Source of the DNA: Yuukianura sp. NJ FZ-2021
Lineage: Eukaryota
Direction: 5' to 3'
Length of the DNA stretch: 64,000 nt
NCBI GenBank assembly: GCA_046563655.1
Contig: CM102283.1
Location: 2,914,001-2,978,000 of the forward strand
Part shown: one piece after another, positions 17,821 to 64,000 of the stretch
How the letters are laid out: every line of letters starts with the position of its first letter
How positions within the stretch are numbered: the first letter of the stretch is position 1
Made by a program: the position numbers and the translations under genes
Notes under the pieces: model-generated
What the model was told of the DNA's origin: nothing
Seen by the model: only the letters and a program-made list of their open reading frames with translations
Databases searched by the model: none

Positions 17821-19131
17821 TATGGGGCTTTAATAACGACACTATAGAAAATATTTTTATTTTTAAAAACTTCGTAAATTGCGAGGTTGAAAATTTCCAA
17901 CCCCGTAAATTACGAGGTCGAAAAGTTCCAACCTCGCAAATTACGAAGTTTAAAATTTCGAACCTTGTAAATTACGGAGTTGGAAATTTCCAACCTTGTA
18001 AGTTGCGGAGTTGAAAAAGTTCCGGAGTCGGAAAGTGGTGGCCCTTTTACGGAGTCGAGAAAATTCACGAGGTTGGAAAATGCACTTTACTTGCCTCCTA
18101 ATTCCGTGGGGAGAAAAAGCTCAGAAGAAGACTAGCCCCTGTACATTGTTGCCACTACGTGTTATGGCATAGGAATACTAAACAAAGGGATGAGTTTTGC
18201 CAAATCTGTATACATCGATGAACGATGATACCATACTGCGGAAACGTTTGGTTGGGGTGAACCGGAATTCCATCGGATGTAACCACAAAGTCCAATTCCT
18301 CCACCGCCATGCTTTTGTTATTACGGTTTGTGCTTAGTCTTTTAGACTACACAATTACCAACAAGAAACCCCGTTGAAGTAAGCCTAGGAGACCACACTG
18401 TACCCACCAGTTCAAAATTTTGCGCGCTGACAGTTTCATCACCAAAAGGTGGCCAAGTTAAGTTCACAGGTTAATCTATTGCCGCTAGGTGTATGTAATG
18501 CTTACGATGTTGGTGGGTACAATTGTTCTCATCCTATGAGTGGGTACAATGACAGTGCGCATAATTTTGAACTGATGGGTACAGTCTGGTAGCCCAAGTT
18601 TACTTCAACGGAGTTTCTTGGTTATGTTGCACAACTCAGCACAAACTGTAGTAACAAAACGGAGGAATTGTTTCTGTGGTTACATCGGATGGAATTCCGG
18701 TTCACCTCAACCAAACGTTTCCACAGTATAGTATCGATGTATGCAGATTTGGCAAAACTTATCCCTTTGTTTAGTATTCCTATGCCATAACACGTAGTGG
18801 CAACAATGGACGGGGGCTAGTCTTCTTCTGAGCTTTTTCTCCCCACGGAATTAGGAGGCAAGTAAAGTGCATTTTCCAACCTCGTGAATTTTCTCGACTC
18901 CGTAAAAGGGCCACCACTTTCCGACTCCGGAACTTTTTCAACACTGCAACTTGCAAGGTTGGAAATTTCCAACTCCGTAATTTACAAGGTTCGAAATTTT
19001 CAACTTCGTAATTTGCGAGGTTGGAACTTTTCGACCTCGTAATTTAAGGGTTTGGAAATTTTCAACCTCGCAATTTACGAAGTTTTTAAAAATAAAAATA
19101 TTTTCTATAGTGTCGTTATTAAAGCCCCATA
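17821..19131. mobile_element. Non-autonomous foldback element: ~615-bp inverted arms with internal ~30-bp subrepeats
   Basis: 17821-~18435 is the reverse complement of ~18547-19131 (tatggggctttaataacgac...gtcgttattaaagccccata). It is flanked by the direct repeat GATAA and has no ORF. Confidence 0.9.
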
Positions 19132-34246: not shown

Positions 34247-38094
<3,848 letters not shown>

Positions 38095-39216: not shown

Positions 39217-41935
<2,719 letters not shown>

Positions 41936-43139: not shown

Positions 43140-43540
43140 TCAGTTGTCACAAATGTCGGTGGGGAATTCCGTATGTAGCGTCTCAGCCAATGTCTCATTT
43201 TCTGGTGTTGTCCGTCTTCCTTCCGTCTTGACATGCCGTTCAACTCAGCGCTGCTGTTTCATATGTGGCGACCGAAAAGGGCGGAGGAGGGTGCCAGTGA
43301 NNNNNNNNNNNNNNNNNNNNNNNNNNNNNNNNNNNNNNNNNNNNNNNNNNNNNNNNNNNNNNNNNNNNNNNNNNNNNNNNNNNNNNNNNNNNNNNNNNNN
43401 GGGTGCCAGTGACTGCCATTCAAGACGCTTGGAAGAAGAACAGAATTGTAATCCCTGCGACTAATAGATGTTGTGGTGAGCATCTACAGAACTCCAGACT
43501 GAACGAAGAATTTAAATTTCTGTTTAGAAATAAATTATAA
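43140..43540 (+). mobile_element. Truncated transposase N-terminal fragment (ISL2EU/Harbinger-like), interrupted by the assembly gap
   Basis: Collapsing the gap on the 12-nt overlap gives RCCFICGDRKGRRRVPVTAIQDAWKKNRIVIPATNRCCGEHL, a CxxC..IP..RCC..HL pattern. No DDE domain follows. Confidence 0.45.
43301..43400. other. Assembly gap (100 N)
   Basis: Run of N. Confidence 1.
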
Positions 43541-45410
43541 ATAGTTCATTCGAACGCTTAGGTTTTGCAGTGGGTTTTTTATTACTAAATATTTATTGAT
43601 TTGTCCATGCCCTTAATGTTAATTAAGTAAAAGTTTTGAGGTATTTGGTTAGAAATATTTAATATTAAGTATTTCGCTTGTTTTAAGGTAATATTTTTTC
43701 CGTGTCTAATATTCAAGGCGGTTTTGGTATGAACAACTGCTGCTCAAGATGTCAAAAATGCTTTCAACCTTATCAGAAGAGCCAAATGCTACAATCTTTG
43801 AAGGTAACAATCTGAGTGATTAAGGTTTAAAAAACGACAATGTTAAAAGAATGTGTGTACAGTATTTCAAAAATCACATTTTTTACGCCGATTTAATTTA
43901 AATCATTGCCATAGGAAGGCACGGTGAATTAAGTTTTGCTAATTTTTTAACAAAATTGAAAAAGTTATAGTTACTGCCTAACCTGTTGCAGAAAAAACTA
44001 TTTTGTTGTTGACGAACCTTGTTGGGAATCGCTCACTTTCTATTGTGTCCCATTAACGTTGAATTATTTTTAAATGCCCTAAACAATGAATATTCTTAGT
44101 TCCGAAGTATAACCTTCCAGTTACGTATTCAAATGCGTCAGTAAATAAATCGAACGAGAACAATAACGGCAATTTTCCATCATCAAAACGCCAAGACTTT
44201 AAACAATGGAAAAACCTTGATTTCGATTTTTAGAAATTACGCCGAAAACTTAATAATCCACTCAACGGAACCTTGGATAAGATTCACTTATCTGAATATG
44301 GCTGTAAAGTTGAATTTGAATTGTGTCAATTCTTATTTTAATTATCGCCTTCCCGAAAAATTTTTTAAGTCCTTGATAATTTAGCCTTTTGTTGAATTCC
44401 GTTTCCTTATTGTCGCATTGTCTGAACGGGGCTTTATTAACGCACTCGAATTTGTCGCTTAGCATAGTATTATTCTTTCACCGGAAGCTAAGACACTCGA
44501 CGAAATTTAAGCGGAAAAGGTACGCTTAACCTTTTTATCTTTTAATTTTAATTTTAAGCGAATAGTTTTAAGGAAATAAGACTTAGGGTTAAGTTAATGA
44601 GTAATTTACTTTTTATTTTATTTTTAAACGTTAAAAAACACAATTTTGATTGGGTTAATGAAAGATTAAAGACTGAAATTCAATTGACAAGATGTAAAGC
44701 CACTAGCGTGGGTATCTTGTCACTAACAATTATGAAAGAAAAATGACAAGAATAAATTGGAAATTTAAAAAAAAATCTTACATTAATGTGAAGAAAGGTA
44801 TCTTACGATTTGTGTTATCTTACGATTTGTGTTTTATAGTCTAGGATCGGATAAGTACGCTCCAAAAAAGCGTTTTAAGCACTTAAAAAGTCCGTAAAAA
44901 TTGGTCCAAAAAAGTTTAAAAAACATGTACGAAAAGTCCCAAAAATTAAAAAATACGGTTAATTTATTGCCACCATAATTAATGTGACAAGTCGAAAATG
45001 CAAAACATTCAAAGTTTCCAATGGTAAAACACTGTCGACGGTCACTTGATATTTCTTTTAATATATTCTTTTCTATTTTTTTCTTCTGAAGCTGTACTGG
45101 TGAGACGTGTGTTTTCCAGTGATTTTTTTTCCACCCGAATTTCAACAAATTGTGTAATTTTTTGAAAACTTTTGCCATTTTTCATGAAAAAATTTACATA
45201 TGTAAGGAAAAAAAGTCCTAAAAACGTTTTATGGTCGAAAAGGTTTTTAAAACTTTTTTAACTTTTTAAAAGTCCGCAAAGTGCTAAAAGTGCTCAAAAA
45301 AAGTTTTTGCGTACTTATCCGATCTCTGTTTATAGTACTTTCTACAACAACAAAATTCCCAGCAAAACTATAATTTACTTGAATAATTGTTAGGTTTGTC
45401 TCTTTTAGAA

Positions 45411-46523
45411 ATGACAATGGAACTGAGTCAAGTGATGCAAAGGAAATTGCAGTTTGATTTTGGAACATTTTGGGATCCAATATGTAAAGAGTCAGTTGAG
45501 GTCACGGGACAATTCCCAATAATTACTCCCCGTGTGGAAAGTATATTGGTACAGGAAGACGTGGAACGCAGTCAGAAGTTTCTCAAAATTTGGACAGAAT
45601 CAATGTTTAAATCGGATTTAAATCCCAAATATGTCGAAGATACGGCTACCACGGTTGCAATATTTGTAACCCTCACTTATCCATTCCAACCTATCGGCAG
45701 TCCAAAATTTAATTTGTGTCTTCAGTATCTTATGTTCATCTGGGTCATTGACGACATTCTGGAGTCATACCTAAGCAACAAAATCGCTTCTGAACAAGTT
45801 TTTACCAACGGTGCAACATATCTCCTAGGAATACTGTCAAAGAATACAACAGATTTTGACAAAGAAAAAGTAGAAGGAATTCCTTCGTTTCAAGGTTTGT
45901 TTAATGCTTTCTCTGACATTGTCCAAAAGCTTCAAGTATTCGATTCCACCGGAGGAACAAAATCCCAGCAATTTTACTTCTTTTTCAAAGAGTACTTTGA
46001 AGGTGTGGCTCGCCGGAATAAGATTGATGGCGCCCTATCTGAGGAAACTTTTCGGAAATGGCGAGGAGCCACAGCGTTTTTTGCGGGAACGGTAGAATTC
46101 TACTGGATTGTAGAAAATGAACATTGCCTGCCGTCTGAAGTTCTGGAATCACCCGTACTCCATTCCATTTGGTCTGTTATTGACTCTATGGGGGCATCTA
46201 CAAATGATTTGTTGAGTATCCTCATCGACATTCTCCATGGCAACAAACAACCTGAGCAATATGAAGTTGACAGTTTAGTTGTTTTCAAAAATGTCCAAAA
46301 AGGAATTCGATTTTGTGATGCCGTTGACCAAGTTTGTGAAGTAGTTAAGAACGATGTGGTTGAATATTTGAAGTTGCGGGAGAACTTTGTGCAAAATTTT
46401 TCAAAATGTTCTAAGGCCATGAAATACATTGACATGATTGAAACAGCTTTGTATGGGCACTGTCGATCATACCTGTACATGCCACGATACCGGGCTGCTG
46501 GTTGTGTAAAACTTACAGACTAA
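45411..46523 (+). CDS. Microbial-type class I terpene synthase (Terpene_syn_C_2-like), intronless CDS
   Basis: 370-aa ORF with WVIDDILE (DDxxD/E), upstream Arg (WRGAT), NDLLSILID (NSE/DTE motif) and C-terminal RY. The ATG at 45411 is preceded by a splice acceptor (ttttag). Confidence 0.85.
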   Translation: MTMELSQVMQRKLQFDFGTFWDPICKESVEVTGQFPIITPRVESILVQEDVERSQKFLKIWTESMFKSDLNPKYVEDTATTVAIFVTLTYPFQPIGSPKFNLCLQYLMFIWVIDDILESYLSNKIASEQVFTNGATYLLGILSKNTTDFDKEKVEGIPSFQGLFNAFSDIVQKLQVFDSTGGTKSQQFYFFFKEYFEGVARRNKIDGALSEETFRKWRGATAFFAGTVEFYWIVENEHCLPSEVLESPVLHSIWSVIDSMGASTNDLLSILIDILHGNKQPEQYEVDSLVVFKNVQKGIRFCDAVDQVCEVVKNDVVEYLKLRENFVQNFSKCSKAMKYIDMIETALYGHCRSYLYMPRYRAAGCVKLTD

Positions 46524-47008
46524 CGTAAAATTTACCAAATTTCAAACTAAACTATATCCGTAGTCAGTAATTGAATAAAATTAATCAAGTTGTTTGATTT
46601 CTTAGAGAATATATTTGCTGGGAAGTTCGATACTTTCTCTCAAAACCAGTGTTTAGTAAAATGCGCCTTTTCAAAGTCGATACTTTGCTTTTTGCTGTAA
46701 ATAGCTTCTTTTTTTTTGCTGTTTTTGCTTTTTATGCTTTAAAAGCAAAAAGTTGCTTTAAGTACTGTTGGAAGGATTCTGGCCGAAATCGACTAACTCG
46801 TAATTAACGTATTATACGTCAAAATACCATTATACTTGTTAAATAATGTAACTATATTTGGTTTATGGCGGTTTTACCTTAGAAAACAATAAATTTGTCT
46901 TAAAAATGTCAATTAATTGATCTTTCAAAAACCGAAAAATTATAAAAATAACAAGTGTGAAAATCGCTGCTTGCTTCATGACAAATTCAGGTCTAATTCG
47001 ATTGAGTT

Positions 47009-47451
47009 TGTAGTTCCCCGGTTTTCCCCCATTAGGTTAGGGTCATTTGCCACTTGAGGTTAGGGTGTGGCCTTAGGTTAGTGTAGTTAGGTTATGGTTA
47101 GTCTTAGCGTTTAGTGGAGATTGGTTTAGCGCTTAGCGCGAGTTTTGAGAGAGTTAGCGTGGTAGAGGAGAATCAGGAGAGTATTGGGACTAGTTGTGCT
47201 AGTGAGTCGGTTTTTGGTGTTCAGATCAGCACGAGCTGATGATCTTGTATTTAGTGTACAAATAAATATCTTTTATATTTATTTGTCGTCGTGTGTTTCG
47301 TGTTGGTTCTTTGGTGTCCCTTAGGGTCCTCAGTTTCGTGGCATGAGTTCGGCAGTGCTCGGATCGTAGTCTGGAGGCCATTTTTTTTGGCATTTTGCGT
47401 AGCACGAGGTGCTACGAGTTAAGGCAGCGTAGTTAATGCTACGTAGTCACA
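47009..47451 (+). mobile_element. Possible solo LTR
   Basis: TGT..ACA ends, G/T-skewed body and internal AATAAA at ~47260. The target duplication is imperfect. Confidence 0.3.
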
Positions 47452-49405
47452 TGTTGCAAATTAAATACAAAATATATACCATGAATTCATATTTTTGCTA
47501 AGATTACTTTTGTTTGTTAAATTTCTGAAATTTTGAAATATTTAAGCAAATTTTTGGAGCGGCTACTCGGCAACAGCATGACTCTGATAGTCATCCATCC
47601 GGCAGCGTTCCATTGCATCAACACAATTTCCCGGCCATGTCGTAGCTTGGCGATTTGCGTCTGCGTAGGTCGTGGACCGGCACAGCTCTGCTCAACTGTC
47701 TTGCCATGTTACTACAATGTACACAAATACTACTCACCCGTCTCCCAAGGTGCTGCTGAAGATGTCAAAAATGCTTTCAACCTTATCAGAGAAGACCTTA
47801 TAGGTACATGGGTTTGCACAGTGCCCTCTGCATTGCGCTGGGATTGTGCGGTAAACTTTGGCCGAGGCAGCGACAATCGTCGCATTGCGGCTCCAGAATG
47901 CTTCCATTGCCCATGACTTTCCTTCCACAAGTTTTGTACAGGAAATAATTAAAACGGGAAGCAGATATTTCCCACTGTGTGAAAACATGGCCTCAATGTT
48001 TGACCGCCTAGCTTCTATGAGAGATTGGAATGAAATGCGCGTAATGAACTTGCTAAACTTTTAGACGAAGTTGTGAGGTGAAGTCAAACAGAAGGTGAAG
48101 CAAGCAGTGCGTTATTGGAACTCGAAACTAAATAGCACATATACTAGCATTAAGTATCGGCAGAAAAAGGTGCGACGTCTGTGAGGAAATTTTGTAATTT
48201 ATTATTCCCAGGTTTTATGTTACTCTTAATTAATATTTATTATTTAACTTCCTTAAGTAATGCCAGATAATAGCAACCTATTGAGCTTCGCGTTGAGTGA
48301 TAAACAAAGAATGCTGAATGATTAATTTAACGCTTTAATTTATATTGCTCAAGGGTCTTAAACAATAAAACAGTTGTTGAGGACAACAAAACCTTCATAG
48401 CAAAACCTACTCAAGGCGGTTTTGGTATGGAGATCGGTGCCGAAGCTGTCGTTCATGCTACTAGATTGTACACAAGTACAACTCATCCGTCTCTCAAGGT
48501 GCTGCTCAAGATGAAAAAATGCTTTCAAGTTTATCTGAAGAGACTTAATGCTACAATCTTTGAAGGTAACAATCGAAGTCATTAAGGTTTAAAATACGAC
48601 ACTCTTGAAAGATGTTATTTCAAAATTCACATTTTTTTTAGAAAAAAAATTCTGTTGTGTTTAATACATTTGTTCATCTACCGCTTTACATTAACATCAT
48701 TATCAAGAAAGCCGATTTTGGAAAGAAACATAACGTTATTGATTTTTAACATGTCTGTATCCAATTATTAGATTCGTTATGTAGAAAAAATGGCAAAATC
48801 GCCGTCTAGCGTGGTTGTATTGTAATTTATTTTTTGATTGAACTAAATGAGACTTCGATAATTCGAAAGTAAAACAATTTTAAGGATTAGCAGAGGTTAG
48901 GTAATGTGTTTACTTCAGTTTTATCAAATGTAAATGTGGCTTATAACTCAATTCGTAATAAAGTTACCAGACGTAGCGACGACGAAAGGCTTTTCAAACG
49001 TTGATTTCAGCATAGCCTAATTGGCAACTAAAATTTAATCTGGCAATAACTTGACTCATTTTCAATTCTATTGCCTATTAACTGAAAAACAATAGGGCCT
49101 GTTTGTCTTATAAATTAAGAAAAAGGTGAATGAGGACATTTCCAAAGAAGAAAACACTGTATCCCATCTGTGCTGAAATCCATTCCGGATGCAGCGGTTA
49201 AACAGTTGAAAAGTTGGTAAATTCTTGTTTTTGAAATAGCAAATTTTTCAAACTGTATTTTTTTATTACTTGTTGTACCATTCACTTGCAGGTTTTGTGC
49301 TAAGTGTTGGTAGTTATTAGTACAGCTATTATTTTTTGCTAGGTTAATGTAATAACCTTTTCTAAAAACCGCAAACTTGCTCATTGAATTGTATTAAATA
49401 TCGGA

Positions 49406-50652
49406 ATGCGGAAAAGGCTTAACTTATGTGTAAAGTTGTTGTACATGTGGGCAGGAGCTCTGAATTGTGTCCCTGTTCGGTATAACTTTGGACATAACAA
49501 ACCCGATACTCTAGTTCACTCCGTTCAAAAATTTCAATCAGTATGCACAATTTTTGGAATATTTTCAACACTTGTCGTAGGCTTGTTTATTTCTTACTTG
49601 TACTACGAAGTAATCTTCGGAGCTACAACGGAAATGGAGAAAATATTTGCCCTTGGGTTGAACGGCATCTTTAACATATTTCACATAACACAATATGTTA
49701 TACTTATCCCAACTTCTAGAAACCGATGTATTAACGTTGTCAACGTTGCTCTGGATACCATTTTCCACTTGTCAAAAAAATTGCCGCTCTTTTATGAAAT
49801 AATCTGCTACATCTGCTCATTCGATTCGGTCATGTATCCATTCTTGTTCGGTCCAATATTATATGCAGTGTCATGGACATTTCCTGGGCTTTTCGCTTCA
49901 TTTCACAACGGAATGTCGGCCATTGCTTCAAAACTTAGCACTCCAGAATCTGTTGCCTTTCCCTGGATTTTCAGCTCTTGTAAATTTAGTGTTACATTTA
50001 TTGTTACGGTTGGACTGGGCCATTCAGCAATCACTTGTATGGTTTTCTCTCACTGGATGTTTACATATTTATTTACAGCTATTCAAAGTTTAAAGGATTT
50101 CAGTTGGTAAGAAAGTTTCAAATTTTCAAAAGTTGTTATTGAAAGTACAAATTAATTTTACTTGACAGTAAAGCGGGCTTATCTAAGGATGGGAATCGCT
50201 TCCTTATGCACACTAGAGAGGTGCGTATGGCGTATTTGAACCTCAAAGTGGCTGCTGAAGCATTTCGAGTAGCATTTGAAGATGCAATTTCGTTAGTCAC
50301 ACCGAACCTTCTCATGATCATTATCATTACAACTTTTTTCACAATCAGGAGTTCTGGGTATCCTTTTGTGATCGTATTTACTATGGCGTGTACTGGTTTT
50401 ACTAGTGGAGTGGCAACATATTTTATTATTAGTCTTTCAACAAACCACCACATTCTGTCTAACGATTTAATTCAAACTGCTCGTCGTCGTGCCCGAGAAC
50501 ACTCAAAATTCGATTCAAAATTTTGGAAAGGAATGACGCCGCTGCGAATCCACGTTGGAACGGCGGCCTCTTTTGAAACTAGGGAATTCATTTTGTTCAT
50601 TTGGTCTCACGTGGTCGTGGGCTCCATTATAAACCTTCTCCTTGCATTTTGA
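49406..50652 (+). CDS. Multi-pass 7TM chemoreceptor-like protein (GR/OR superfamily-like); 2 exons
   Basis: Exons 49406-50106 and 50169-50652 join in frame (~395 aa). About 7 hydrophobic segments. C-terminal KFWKGMTPLRIHVG..F..FIW..VV..IINLLL resembles the GR/OR TM7 region. Confidence 0.7.
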
Positions 50653-52362
50653 ATAGAATGAGAGAATCTTCTTTCTCTAAATAAAAGTAGTGGTATGCAT
50701 GCAAATATTTATGTCTATTAGAAAGCTACATGTTTGAAATTGAAAGTAATAAATGACAATCTGCAAAATTAGATTATCGAAACTACCAGTTTTACACTTT
50801 ATTCTTAAGATGAAAATTATTGTCGTGTTTTAACTACTTGCCTTAAGGTTTTCTATAACATTATTTAAAAAACTAGTATCTATAAAAGCCTATCTATAAA
50901 AACGTGTTCTAAAACTCCACGTCCATGGGCTACTTATTCTCACTGTTGCTTGACATCAATTGACCTCTAAAAATGGCAGAGGTCAAAGTCCAGAATATTC
51001 TCACCACAATTCTTTACAGAGAGAATTATATATTATTCAGTATTACTTATTACAGTATTCGAATTTTTTATATCAGCTCATCTGTTTTCACCTTAATGAG
51101 TTGTTGGACAGTATCGTTAGTAGGTGATTTCTCATAAAGACTTTGGGGACAATTGCTGAATGATTGATATGACTCTCAGAACACTACAAGAAACACTTTT
51201 CGCATTAGCGTAAGCTGGAAAATGTGGCATAAATCTTTTATTTTACGAAAACTGGACGCTTCATCCAGAAAACATAAGTTTTCTGGAGGACATTCGTGAA
51301 ACCATCGTATTTTTGCCATAGATATTTTCATTCCTACGGCTACAGGTTTGCAAAAATGGTAAAAAAAAGACTTAAGCAATGATTTGCAGCGTATGCTAGT
51401 GGTTGTAGTTTTCTGAGCATCCCATCAATCATGCAGTAATTTTCCACAAAGATTGGGTCCAAGCTCAAGTTTTTTTTACGATTCACGGTTCACAAATTAC
51501 GCCACCATGAACACAAAAGGCGTACGACTGAAATCACTGAATCTATATAATCACTGGAATTCAACCTTGTAAAACCATTATTGTAGGAACAAGAATTAGC
51601 GTGGCAAGAATCAATGTTGAAGGTTCGTTATTTGGGTAGAAATGTTGAAATTGCTTTCCTGTGTGGTTGTCATTTTATTCTTTGATTGAGCTAAATGAGA
51701 TTTCAAAAATTGTAAAGTTATACAATTTTAAGAATTACCATTCGGTAGGAAAAGTGTTTACTTTTTCAGTTTTACCATATGTAAATGTGGCTTATAACTC
51801 AATTATGTAGCAATCGTAATGAAGTTTTGAGACGTAGCGACGACGATATTAAAGGCTTTCAACGCTGTTTTTTCCTTCCAGAATAACCTAATTGGCAACG
51901 AAAAATTTAACCCGGCAGGCAATAACTTTTGACTCATTTTCTAGTATCGAATAAACCGCGTATACGTTAAGTAGCGAATGACACACTGACCTTGCAATGA
52001 ATGAGTTACTTCTAAAAAAAATGGAGTTTTTGTATTATCACATCAACACTTTTAACAGACCCTTGCTAAAGTTAATCACGATTAATCTAATCAATTCACT
52101 TTTTAGTTCAACACTTGATCAACCGAAGGACAAGAACCCTGAATTGGCCCTACTAATTTTTTTGGCTCTTATTGAAACTACCCCATATTGGATTGGCCCT
52201 TTTTGGATTAGCCCTTATTTTTTCGGCCCTTTTTGATCTGGCCCTTTTTGGTTTGGCCCATATGATCTGCTTCGCACACACACACACCTTCCCACCTCCA
52301 GCTCTACACTTAACAATAATACACTGATCACGTCAATAAAATTTTATCAAATCACCCCACTC

Positions 52363-52761
52363 CAGTGTTGCTGGATGCTTAAACGTCCAGTGGCTTAATT
52401 GCCACTTCCTCTGGATATCCAGTGGATGAAATGGGGTCCTACTGGACGGTGGATGGAAGAAATCAGCTGAGGTCAAAAATTCAGTGCCAATTTCAAATAA
52501 ATTTAAATTAAATAATAGGAAATACTTTAATTAAGTATTTAAATTGCTTTTGCTTAATCGGTTTTGTTATTTTAACTTATTTTAGAACGATTTTCGGTTG
52601 TTTTTGCATTGTTTTTGATTTTTTTGCGTTCTTTATTATCAAATTATGCACACCCTGCGGGCAAAGCTCCGCCCCTTTGGATTTATCCATTTCGTCCATT
52701 TCTTCCACTGGATATCCAGCCGTGGATGAAATGTCGAAAAAGTGGATATCCAGCAACACTG
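52363..52761. mobile_element. hAT-type MITE, 399 bp
   Basis: TIR CAGTGTTGCTGGAT...ATCCAGCAACACTG and perfect 8-bp TSD CCCCACTC (52355-52362, 52762-52769). Subterminal tggatatccag repeats. Confidence 0.92.
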
Positions 52762-60521: not shown

Positions 60522-62655
60522 CTACCGACGACGCCGTTTCTGCGCATGAGCAGTTGACACCGTGGACACAACTGCGCCGGGGCAATATGAGAAGTTCGGA
60601 AACAGGAGACAATGCAGAGATAAGAATCGGGTAGGATCCTCTTCCTGGCTGAATCCATCCGGAACTTCCAGAATATTCTCGTACTCTGCATATCGAACAT
60701 AACTAAAGGTAATCTGAAATTTAAAAAAAAATTGTTTTGAATTTCAAAATTTCGAATATAGTAAGAATTTATTTTAGTAGCATGTGGAATTATTTTGTAA
60801 CTGAGCAAATCAAATCATGTTCCAAATCAGTTTGAATTTACTGCATCCTCCCTCAAGCCATTTTGGCATTCTAAAATTTCGTGTGTTAACAATGGTAGGC
60901 AAAATTTTTTTTTCGAAAACACATCATCAATCAAAAATCGAAGCTGAAAGAAGTAGTTGCAGGTCTAATCAAGCCATTTGAAAGTTTTTTTTGTGATGAA
61001 GCTGAACATGGATTTGATCACTCCAGGGATTCTGTTTGAATTTTAAAAGTTTCCGCGCCTCCAGCACAATTCATTTGCTACATCCAAATTCCTCCCGGCA
61101 AATTTTTTTTGAAAACTGAACAAAATGATTACACGGCATTTTTGTGGGTGCGCCTTCAACAACAAAAGAAATTACGAAGGGCCCTTCAAGGGACAGAAAA
61201 TTTGAAGCTTCAATTGTGACAAGGCACAAAATATTTCCAATTCTAATCTTCCAATATTATTTTTACTAATGCGTATTAAAATTTTTTACTTTGGATAAAA
61301 TTTTTAATTTTTAATTTTTACTAAAAACGCTCCTTCGGGCCATTCACGAATGTTCAAAATGATCGGGAACATTTGAAATTTAAAAAAAAATGACTTTTTT
61401 TTTTCGAAAAAATTTACCTCTGTTCCTGGACTTTTCATGTCAATGAACTTCATTGTTTCAAAATGAGAATGAAACTGGGGAATGACTGTCAAATTTTGAC
61501 CCAACAGATGACCTGCAATCACAATCAAATTTTGTTAACATAACATTTTTGTTAACTTAACATTTTGTTAACTTAACATATTGTTAACCTAACTTATGTT
61601 TAGGAATCTTACCAGCGATGTAGCCCACTGTTACATCATCAGGCAACTGAATTCTATCACAGACTTTCATAAATTTTCCGCCACTGAAAACCAAAATCAA
61701 AAGTCAAATTAAAAGTTTTGAAAAAAAAAAGTTCAGATTCTGACAAATCAGGTTCTAAAAGCATTATTTTGAAAACACATTTGCCTTGTAGCAGCTTACG
61801 CTTTGCATTCACGCATGCGCGGTGAGCATAGAATTAAAAAAATGGACAATTTGAACTTTTTTCAACTGTATTGAATTTTTTTTTGGATTGTTGAGATAAA
61901 GTGCAGAGTTGAAAGTTTGAAAAGTGGCGCTCCTTGGTTTTAAAAGTCTGATGAAGCATGACGGGCGGTAAAGCCACAACCGGAGGGATTTTGAAAATGT
62001 TCCATTTGAGAAAAATGGCTACTTTTGAACCATGGGGGGAGATTTTGAAAGTAATCTCGTGGTCTATTGTTCTCCTGTCAAAATCAACTTCAACCTCCAT
62101 TTCTTCTATTTCCAACAACTCAGAAGCCAAGTTTTGTTCAGAAGTCTTTCTAAATGTCTTTTCCAATCATTCAATCACACAAACTACACCAGAAAACAAT
62201 CAACTCTAATGGAACAGGCATGTAAACCTACAGCATATCAACGCATGCACATGCGTCTTAGTGTTTAGAAACATTTGAATTTAAATGAAGCGCATAAAAA
62301 CTCTTCCTTTTAGAAAAAGTACAAATTTTTCAAAGAAAAATGTGGACTTTTTTTGAACAAGCTAGGAGTTAGACTGGTGCACGCGTTGAGTTTTTTTTTT
62401 AAAAAGTTCACTTTTTTATTATTTTGTTTTATGCATAAGATTTTTCCGCTTTGTTGCTCAGGTAGGCTTTAGCTGTGCTAATTACACAATCGAAGGTGTT
62501 ACATGAGGTAACTAATTAGCTGAGTAATTAGTAATAAGTAATTAACGATAGTAAAATTTTGAGTTATACCTGGCCAGTGGACTCATGCGCAGAGCCAGTG
62601 CTCGACTGATGCAGAAACCTGCACCGCCAGTGGCAAACCAAAATGAAACTTCTTC
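60522..62655 (-). CDS. fng: Fringe beta-1,3-N-acetylglucosaminyltransferase, last 4 exons (5' part outside window)
   Basis: Exons 62570-62655 ([17 protein letters not shown]), 61612-61684 ([10 protein letters not shown]), ~61418-61512 (FHSHFE) and 60522-60713 ([21 protein letters not shown]). Confidence 0.92.
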
Positions 62656-64000
62656 CTGAAATAAAAAAACAAAAGAAATGTTTAGACACAAACAAAATGA
62701 ATTATTGGACGTATGGAACAATCCACTTGTTAAAAAAAAAACAAAATTTTGAACCCTCATTCCCATTTATTATTAATCCCCACTTGTTCTGTACTACAAG
62801 GTAGGAAAGGTATGATTTAGTTTCGGAAAAAATTTTTTGAAAAGAAACAAGTTGAACTTGGCGGCAAACAAAAAAAAAGTAGCGGCAAACGCTCCTTTTA
62901 TTTAAAAAAAAAAAAGAAAACACGAAATTGTTTCTAGCGAATTTCCTCAACTAAACACTTTCCATCGCACAGATAAATCTTCAAGAGGAAAAAAATGTGA
63001 AAACAACGGAGAAAATTCTGCAAATTGCGTCTTATATGCTTCATTTCAATTTTCAGAAAACAATAAATAAATTCTTTCTAAGAAACAAAACAAATTTTCT
63101 CCGCATTTCTTTTGAGTTTGGTCCCGATCCATCCTTTTGGAAATCAATACCAATTTCCATCCATTTGACCTTTGGACTTTTGCTCTCTTTTCTTGGTACT
63201 TTCTCAACATTTTCTTATAAACTTTGTTCATAAAGTGGTTTTTCCGCTCACTTTCTCCTCTTTTGTTTTAATTTAAAAATAAATTGAACATTATTATCTC
63301 ATTTTTCTCTTAAATTTTTTTCTCTTCTAAATTTTCTAAAATTTTCTGCTAAAATGCACATTTTTGCAGTCACGTCACGCTCCGTATTTCTTGACTCATC
63401 TGCATTGACTAAAAGGAAAAAGAAGGAGATGCGAATGACGTCATTGTTCAAACACGCCAAGGATGTGTCTAACAGAACACTTCTGGAAGATCACTTTGAA
63501 CAAGAACTTTCTCCTGTCCCGCTGTACACAAAAGACTAAGAAGTGCTATAGTACTCCAGAACAGCTTAGGATTTAGAACAACTTTGTTCTAAACCTGTTC
63601 TAAACACAGAACTTTCCCCATTCTCTCCTTCTCCGTCACCGCACCTATTGATTTTCACGCTCACGATTTCATCCGAAGTCCAACTTCGACTTAAAACTGC
63701 CTTGGCACACGCCCAACCTCACTTTTCCCAGAATTACTTTCTCTTTACAATCTTCTGCTTCTGCTCAACAACAACTTTTTTTTGTGTCCAAAGAGCACCG
63801 TTTCCTCCCCACGGTGCACCGCGGCGGCGGCCGAAAACTTTTTAGTTCCAGGAGAAAAAAAATTCCGTCGGACTTTCTCCCCAGCGAAAGCAGCCATACT
63901 TTCCCTTTGCTCAAAAACTTTCCAACTCCCCTTCCGAACCAAACCTAAAGTGAGCAACTCTATCACTTGTTTACAAAATTAACCTAAAACAAGTTAGCCT

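Follow-up and report, generated by a model that had tools for sequence, protein, structure and literature searches.

A divergent terpene synthase gene of the microbial type in a springtail genome

Canonical terpene synthases occur in springtails, mites and sciarid flies, and the springtail enzymes AfTPS2, FcTPS2 and FcTPS5 are active, according to the part of the PNAS 2024 study used here (PMC11665903). The same part records BcTPS4, which has a complete set of motifs and is inactive in vitro (PMC11665903). In the available text of an Angew Chem 2026 survey, 277 springtail terpene synthase genes are counted in 21 of 26 genomes; introns are present in 55% of the genes and absent from 45% (PMC13638087). 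Four of the five Sinella enzymes ScTC1-5 are described there as active, and the motif-complete ScTC4 as inactive in vitro (PMC13638087). The springtail enzymes make up a separate clade of their own with good support (PMC13638087), apart from those of mites and gnats in the text available from both papers (PMC11665903; PMC13638087). As far as that text goes, the microbial origin of the whole springtail family is left unresolved in print (PMC13638087).

The window considered here, meaning the whole 64-kb stretch of DNA that was analysed, contains a further gene of this kind. Its stop-to-stop frame, 45387-46523 on the forward strand, runs for 378 codons; translation from the ATG at 45411 gives 370 residues, followed by TAA. 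With the base composition of 43401-48500, stops should come about once in 14 codons, and the probability that 378 codons stay open by chance at that local composition is p ~7e-13. The main reading, to which a probability of roughly 0.8 is assigned, is that the locus is a springtail nuclear gene for a single-domain (alpha-only) class I terpene synthase belonging to the microbial-type family described in Collembola. Its identity as a springtail terpene synthase gene can be stated with high confidence, and that it gives rise to an active, expressed enzyme seems, from its sequence, slightly better than an even chance. The gene is a divergent further member of the published springtail family and may already be among the 277. 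Because microbial-type synthases of springtails are already in print, it does not represent a new kind of gene. The positions of the features are collected in Table 1.

Table 1. Features of the terpene synthase locus and its surroundings (positions count from the first letter of the window)
Feature	Position	Strand	Basis or remark
GH31 pieces	34534-35082 and 36209-36739		Pfam
Alpha-amylase-family exon, profile positions 204-367	40352-40921		Pfam
Alpha-amylase-family exon, profile positions 378-442	41200-41553		Pfam; frame separate from 40352-40921
Assembly gap, 100 N, between terpene synthase gene and upstream maltase gene	43301-43400		Sequence
Short dispersed repeat copy, upstream of gene	43738..43884	+	Other copies 48500-48637, 47751-47790
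Pyrimidine tract and AG, candidate 3' splice site, 2 nt before ATG, phase 1	45399..45408	+	Sequence
Putative terpene synthase CDS, 370 aa, single-domain class I microbial-type	45411..46523 including TAA	+	ORF, PF19086, model
Asp-rich motif DDILE (D114, D115, E118), predicted first metal-binding site	45750..45764	+	Sequence, alignment
R218, candidate pyrophosphate-sensor Arg, 47 residues before N265	46062..46064	+	Sequence, alignment
NDLLSILID (N265, S269, D273), predicted second metal-binding motif of NSE type	46203..46229	+	Sequence, alignment
Seven-residue insertion H276-E282, right behind NSE helix	46236..46256	+	Alignment
RY pair R359-Y360, near C-terminus	46485..46490	+	Sequence, alignment
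AATAAA, possible polyadenylation signal, 51 nt past stop	46574..46579	+	Sequence only; weak in AT-rich DNA
Repeat copies, downstream of gene	48454..48637	+	Resemble 47705-47796 and 43738-43884
Fringe exon	62542-62766		Pfam

The encoded protein matches the Pfam family PF19086 (Terpene_syn_C_2) at 23.9 bits (E 3.9e-5), a margin of 0.2 bits over the cut-off of 23.7, and its residues 106-314 span profile positions 2-195 of 199. Six Pfam families were matched up to E = 1, the polyprenyl synthase family being absent among them, and an NCBIfam search with the protein returned nothing relevant. With the single sequence as query, the best match among PDB sequences was pentalenene synthase at a non-significant E of 0.69, and a word-indexed protein search yielded 1158 candidates, none at E <= 0.001. 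The word-indexed search with a profile of 16 family members (A1) had P0018 as its sole return. Exhaustive phmmer comparison with 1.84 billion representatives detected 20 proteins at E <= 1e-3, nine of them at <= 1e-10 and two at <= 1e-30. Identity to any of these relatives is at most 35% over the matched stretch, and the two best full-length matches stand at 31% and 30%. PF19086 itself is matched at E <= 0.01 by 18 of the 20 relatives, 17 of which are above the cut-off, and most score 40-93 bits on it, well over the value for the window protein. As the protein came so close to being missed by the profile and the word-based searches were empty, current counts of springtail terpene synthases may be underestimates.

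Comparison at the level of profile and structure points in one direction. Profile A1 retrieves 98 distinct PDB sequences at E <= 0.01, headed by 10-epi-cubebol synthase (7zrn, 3.1e-23), and the best 60 of these 98 are nearly all named terpene synthases or cyclases or designed variants. An AlphaFold2 model built on alignment A1 reaches a pLDDT of 86.2 and a pTM of 0.88. Foldseek searches with this model give 251 PDB matches at E <= 0.001; among the matches listed, TMq lies between 0.63 and 0.71 and there are bacterial or fungal class I synthases exclusively. VIA-align superposes the model on the diterpene synthase CyS (7y50) with a Z of 32.2 and an rmsd of 2.6 over 320 residues; Z lies at 28-32 for 50 entries, and every structural match is a terpene cyclase or a related N-prenyltransferase. 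The best ten hits of a protein-language look-up are all terpene synthase clusters. Judged by its sequence and predicted fold, the window protein belongs with the microbial-type terpene synthases of class I, has an alpha-only architecture and is not an IDS derivative. A sequence-only reading of this DNA had proposed the same distinction, which is borne out by the PF19086 score, by the lack of a polyprenyl synthase match and by the class I fold of bacterial and fungal enzymes.

That reading had also recognised DDILE, an upstream arginine, NDLLSILID and a terminal RY within one frame of 370 residues, and all of them are found where it had placed them, as D114-E118, R218, N265-D273 and R359-Y360. 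DDILE fits the pattern DDxx(D/E). D114 and D115 are kept in all 14 relatives with a residue there, while position 118 is E in nine and D in five of the 14, which makes DDxxE the majority form. The column of R218 holds R in 13, K in one and G in one of 15 relatives, and the pyrophosphate-sensor Arg was reportedly placed about 46 residues upstream of the NSE motif in the paper on induced fit. N265 and D266 are invariant (15/15), and N265, S269 and D273 fit the triad pattern (N/D)Dxx(S/T/G)xxx(E/D). At the centre of the motif, 13 of 15 relatives have Gly and two have Ser, as does the window protein (S269). At the terminal residue of the motif, position 273, the relatives carry D in seven cases, E in six, S in one and Q in one, so that Asp is ordinary in the family and not the noteworthy variant for which it had been taken; it is assumed that Asp can stand in for Glu in catalysis at this end of the motif. 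At position 272 the window protein has Ile, where 12 of 15 relatives carry K and one each N, M or R. In bacterial enzymes the equivalent Lys beside the NSE motif contacts the diphosphate. Towards the C-terminus, R359 falls in a column with R in 14 of 15 relatives and Y360 in one with Y in 12 and H in three. All predicted metal- and diphosphate-binding positions are filled by permitted residues. The insertion H276-E282 is missing in 13 of the 15 aligned relatives, and the other two have at most 2-3 extra residues there, a length specific to P0001 aside. The model is less confident in this region, with a pLDDT of 69 for residues 271-280.

If the enzyme works as its family does, three Mg2+ ions would be held by D114/D115/E118 and N265/S269/D273, and R218, R359 and Y360 would take hold of the diphosphate in a prenyl diphosphate substrate, which may lie between GPP and GFPP to judge from the characterised springtail enzymes. 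Loss of the diphosphate would leave an allylic carbocation that could be cyclised or quenched in a hydrophobic helical pocket. The product would be one or more terpenes, with a probable role as a defence or signal compound.

The DNA around the gene is that of an animal. A maltase exon, the first alpha-amylase-family exon of Table 1, is 65% identical to Folsomia candida, 60% to Orchesella cincta and 56-60% to O. dallaii, compared with at most 50% for insects and crustaceans. On these sequence identities the host is a springtail, which makes the arthropod genome of the earlier reading more precise. The neighbouring host genes are split into exons, as had been stated, the alpha-amylase pieces lying in separate frames and GH31 coming in two pieces, and a C2H2 zinc-finger exon and a claudin-like exon are also present in the window. 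Microbial contamination or an assembly mis-join is scarcely credible as a source of the gene. In its favour, the 100-N gap does lie 2 kb upstream as had been remarked, and the public contigs are short, none of those listed joining the gene to host exons. However, no N occurs from 43400 to the end of the window at 64000, and the 17.5 kb of DNA downstream of the gene holds the claudin-like and Fringe exons, with which the gene is therefore contiguous. Its composition is also that of the host, with a GC of 0.397 in the ORF against 0.382 in the window and a GC3 of 0.383 against 0.38-0.57 in neighbouring exons. Two further points against contamination are that the gene is present in runs of two studies with two organism labels and that its relatives carry introns.

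Organism names are attached to three of the 20 relatives, all of them F. candida; 15 are nameless and two have generic names. In one cluster there is a record named (+)-germacrene D synthase by its source. Identity of the window protein to the F. candida representatives is at most 24% (P0010). A maximum-likelihood tree of 17 rows, without outgroup enzymes, places the window protein together with metagenomic sequences in a set of eight rows with support of 96/93; the next sequences outside this set are P0005 and then F. candida P0010 (89/83). With no bacterial, fungal or mite enzymes among its rows and with a midpoint root, the tree gives membership of the family and not its origin. The window protein has a long end branch, 1.49 changes per column where its seven set-mates have 0.10-0.98, and this length could reflect relaxed constraint. 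A scan of metagenomes with the single protein as query produced 102 pattern matches with no relative among them. With an alignment of the six closest sequences (A2) as query, the scan produced four loci, L001-L004, on contigs of one metagenome with a GC of 0.35-0.42. A second synthase copy is absent from the 64-kb window, where tblastn of the protein matches the gene itself alone.

The four metagenomic loci are informative about the 5' end of the gene. The main exon of L001, L003 and L004 lacks a start codon, and ahead of it lies a conserved exon, 18 codons and one base long, which ends in a DYPxYxDP-like stretch. The two are separated by a phase-1 intron of 69-142 nt with a GTAAGT or GTAATT donor and a pyrimidine-rich acceptor, located 17 codons before a conserved FDF. 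The main frame of L004 has one further interruption. L002, the fourth relative, has neither such an acceptor nor the mini-exon and begins with its own ATG. From the mini-exon and intron it follows that the contigs of L001, L003 and L004 are eukaryotic, and from the mini-exon that P0002 and P0004, as automatic proteins, have a truncated N-terminus. These features in the nearest relatives show a long residence of the subclade in eukaryotic genomes.

In the window, the acceptor stretch TCTCTTTTAG ends at 45408 in phase 1, 15 codons before FDF, and the earlier observation of an acceptor just before the ATG, a pyrimidine tract with AG, is thereby upheld. It had been interpreted as belonging to a newly gained intron in the 5'UTR. 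Three of the four nearest relatives share a phase-1 intron within two codons of it, and as the acceptor is in phase with this common intron, the intron looks inherited rather than gained. The mini-exon was sought in 43401-45410, where none of 19 ATG-to-GT phase-1 candidates is similar to it and no motif match occurs; short-query tblastn of the whole window gave chance-level matches, none of them on the + strand upstream of the gene. With no credible mini-exon found in the window, this copy may lack its original 5' end and promoter. The sequence is suggestive of an acceptor that either remains from the inherited intron or is still in use as part of it, with the protein now beginning at the adjoining ATG, and the copy is possibly 5'-remodelled. 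A pyrimidine tract with AG arising by chance in the same phase and within two codons is not very unlikely, at an estimated few per cent. The coding sequence seen in the window is a single exon, as had been reported, and this state is nothing special in view of the 125 of 277 springtail terpene synthase genes (45%) that are given as intronless in the available text of the survey (PMC13638087).

A fresh, isolated horizontal acquisition, as put forward in the sequence-only reading, is not sustained by these comparisons. Recent independent transfer from a bacterium or fungus, outside the known springtail family, is very improbable, even though bacterial and fungal enzymes have this fold and these motifs, the coding sequence is one exon and the window holds no other copy. 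The best matches are at most 35% identical, the only relatives with an organism name are the springtail F. candida and none is bacterial or fungal by that name, and the window protein nests among family members in the tree. The nearest relatives possess spliceosomal introns and lie on AT-rich contigs, the acceptor of the window gene sits at the intron position of the family, and its base composition equals that of the host. Membership of the springtail family remains the preferred reading, in which the window copy would be a fast-evolving solitary paralogue that has apparently lost the short first coding exon of its relatives.

Repeats lie on both sides of the gene. The copy at 43738-43884 is 83% identical to 48500-48637, its beginning (43738-43777) is 97.5% identical to 47751-47790, and 47705-47796 resembles 48454-48544. 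Twelve flanking ORFs, located from 42.9 to 49.4 kb, were compared with Pfam, and none matched a family, transposon families included. The surroundings had been described as debris of transposable elements; the repeats are there and the region is shown to be repeat-rich, but no transposon domain occurs in the 12 ORFs, and transposon debris is thus not seen at the protein level. Two joints, 43737 to 48438 (X4, side 26) and 46577 to 43738 (X5, side 75), could have indicated a presence/absence variant or a unit arranged in tandem or as a circle. This interpretation was rejected, since position 43738 marks the border of a repeat with three copies in the window and both sides are short.

Variation in public data bears on whether the gene is maintained. 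The stretch was found in five public DNA runs. Four come from one sample, with 0.56-0.57 of the sampled words, and the fifth, with 0.21, has another organism label and study, here organism B. Contigs of organism B show 29 substitutions and 0 gaps over 45807-46420 (29/614), 43 differences and four gap letters over 45100-45836, and 37 substitutions and 17 gap letters in the non-coding flank 43738-44519 (37/775). The coding copy in organism B is about 95% identical to the window gene; its frame is kept, and the density of substitutions is alike in the coding part and the flank. The coding differences common to four runs, among those listed, are I157F, G198C and a silent change at Y195.

These data can be turned towards a different history, in which the gene is an intact-looking duplicate that is non-functional or decaying, having lost its first exon and promoter and drifting among repeats, silent or impaired by K272I and the insertion. 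The similar substitution densities of coding part and flank in organism B would fit such a copy, as would the two of three listed coding variants that alter the protein (I157F and G198C). So would the first coding exon not found in the window, the end branch of 1.49, the Pfam score at the cut-off where most relatives reach 40-93 bits, the replacement of Lys by I272 and the repeats on either side. This history is nevertheless unlikely. The frame has stayed open over 378 codons (p ~7e-13) despite about 1.5 changes per site, which argues that selection kept it for most of that time. In organism B the 614 coding bases contain no gap against 17 gap letters in 775 bases of flank. The predicted metal- and diphosphate-binding residues are all retained and the structure model is confident (pLDDT 86.2). 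An in-frame ATG in good context directly follows the acceptor, and L002 likewise begins at its own ATG without the mini-exon.

One observation on the relatives concerns possible chemistry. On L001, an ORF in divergent orientation, about 1.4 kb from the gene of the closest relative, matches geranyl diphosphate 2-C-methyltransferase (3vc1, E 4.5e-72). In bacteria, a pair of genes for geranyl diphosphate methyltransferase and synthase makes compounds of the 2-methylisoborneol type. If the pair on L001 is that of a springtail, it would point to animal synthesis of methylated terpenoids. The 64-kb window has no homologue of the L001 methyltransferase, its lone match being 27 residues long (18189-18269, E 0.002). 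The literature search on geranyl diphosphate methyltransferase in springtails found nothing, one on 2-methylisoborneol, Collembola and methyltransferase had no relevant title among the matches listed, and the main text of PMC13638087 makes no mention of a methyltransferase. That the subclade of the window gene might provide a springtail route to non-canonical methylated (C11-type) terpenoids, and that the diverged window enzyme, in which the surroundings of the diphosphate site are altered, could take such a substrate, is a long shot.

The value of the locus lies mainly in annotation, as one more unusually divergent member is added to a published family. The mini-exon and its intron can serve as a marker that separates whole copies from 5'-truncated ones.

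Among known systems, the IDS-derived terpene synthases of insects share the reaction class and the arthropod host with the window enzyme and differ in fold family. The canonical synthases of mites and sciarid flies are arthropod-encoded and microbial-type, like the window enzyme; arthropod-encoded enzymes of this type are also said to be the subject of a study on trombidid mites. The solved bacterial and fungal synthases CyS (7y50/7y88), 7zrn, pentalenene synthase (1ps1) and Copu9 (7ofl) superpose on the model with Z 30-32 and rmsd 2.4-2.9 over 295-322 residues. Profile homology to the solved enzymes is 3e-23 to 4e-16, with just 11-18% identity to the window protein. The Asp-rich, NSE, Arg-sensor and RY elements are common to these class I enzymes and the window protein. 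Unlike them, the window enzyme is encoded in an animal genome, its relatives have eukaryotic gene structure, and DDxxE and a central Gly or Ser in the NSE motif are the norm of its family. The springtail enzymes AfTPS2, FcTPS2, FcTPS5 and ScTC1-5 share with it the host group, the alpha-only class I architecture and the four motifs. Their family holds copies with and without introns, and the window gene is a single coding exon. It is set apart from the other springtail enzymes by its long branch, I272, the seven-residue insertion and a borderline Pfam score.

The predicted model of the 370-aa terpene synthase places an N-terminal beta-hairpin, modelled with confidence, and a short C-terminal strand, both predicted to pack on the helical core. 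In the alignment the sequence beneath them (FDF...G..PR..P and G.V.L) is kept in relatives. Structural alignment with bacterial structures starts at residue 10-20 in some and only at about residue 30 in others. In the near relatives on three contigs of one metagenome (L001, L003 and L004) the main exon follows a phase-1 intron of 69-142 nt, itself preceded by a first exon of 18 codons that is conserved. The automatic protein predictions P0002 and P0004 from these contigs begin too far downstream and are cut short at the N-terminus.

At window position 45879 the public DNA run X1 carries the window's A alongside T (I157F), at similar contig depth, and in runs X3, X4 and X5 T alone is seen. Of the words sampled from the synthase gene, just 0.56-0.57 occur in the runs of this sample. 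The gene therefore exists in two or more variants about 2.4% apart, and the assembly contains one of them. The nearest gene downstream is a pair of adjoining frames encoding a hydrophobic, multi-pass-looking protein, for which a Pfam search gave no match at E <= 0.001. Further downstream, each of the four runs has one contig that bypasses a segment present in the window, and ten letters at the joint are compatible with either side. Many loose ends at 52362/52363 and 52761/52762 and a very high contig depth accompany the segment, which resembles a short mobile element of high copy number with polymorphic insertion.

Coordinates of features in the window and on metagenome contigs
Feature	Location	Strand	Remark
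Modelled beta-hairpin, residues 11-37	window 45441-45521		
Modelled C-terminal strand, residues 366-369	window 46506-46517		
Open frame	window 49388-50110	+	240 codons
Open frame	window 50143-50652	+	169 codons
Skipped segment	window 52355-52761		407 bases
First exon and intron	L001:2956-3081		conserved
First exon and intron	L003:1272-1395		conserved
First exon and intron	L004:265-461		conserved
Geranyl diphosphate 2-C-methyltransferase-like ORF	L001:542-1576	-	345 codons; match to 3vc1, E 4.5e-72
Intron-bearing terpene synthase	L001:2956-4172	+	closest relative of window enzyme

On L001 the closest relative lies about 1.4 kb from a divergently oriented methyltransferase-like ORF assigned to Methyltransf_25/CMAS in Pfam, whose open frame has no start codon and whose N-terminus carries about 90 additional, hydrophobic residues. 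Literature searches found no report of this methyltransferase-synthase pair. The two genes form a pair of the 2-methylisoborneol type, apparently in a eukaryotic carrier.
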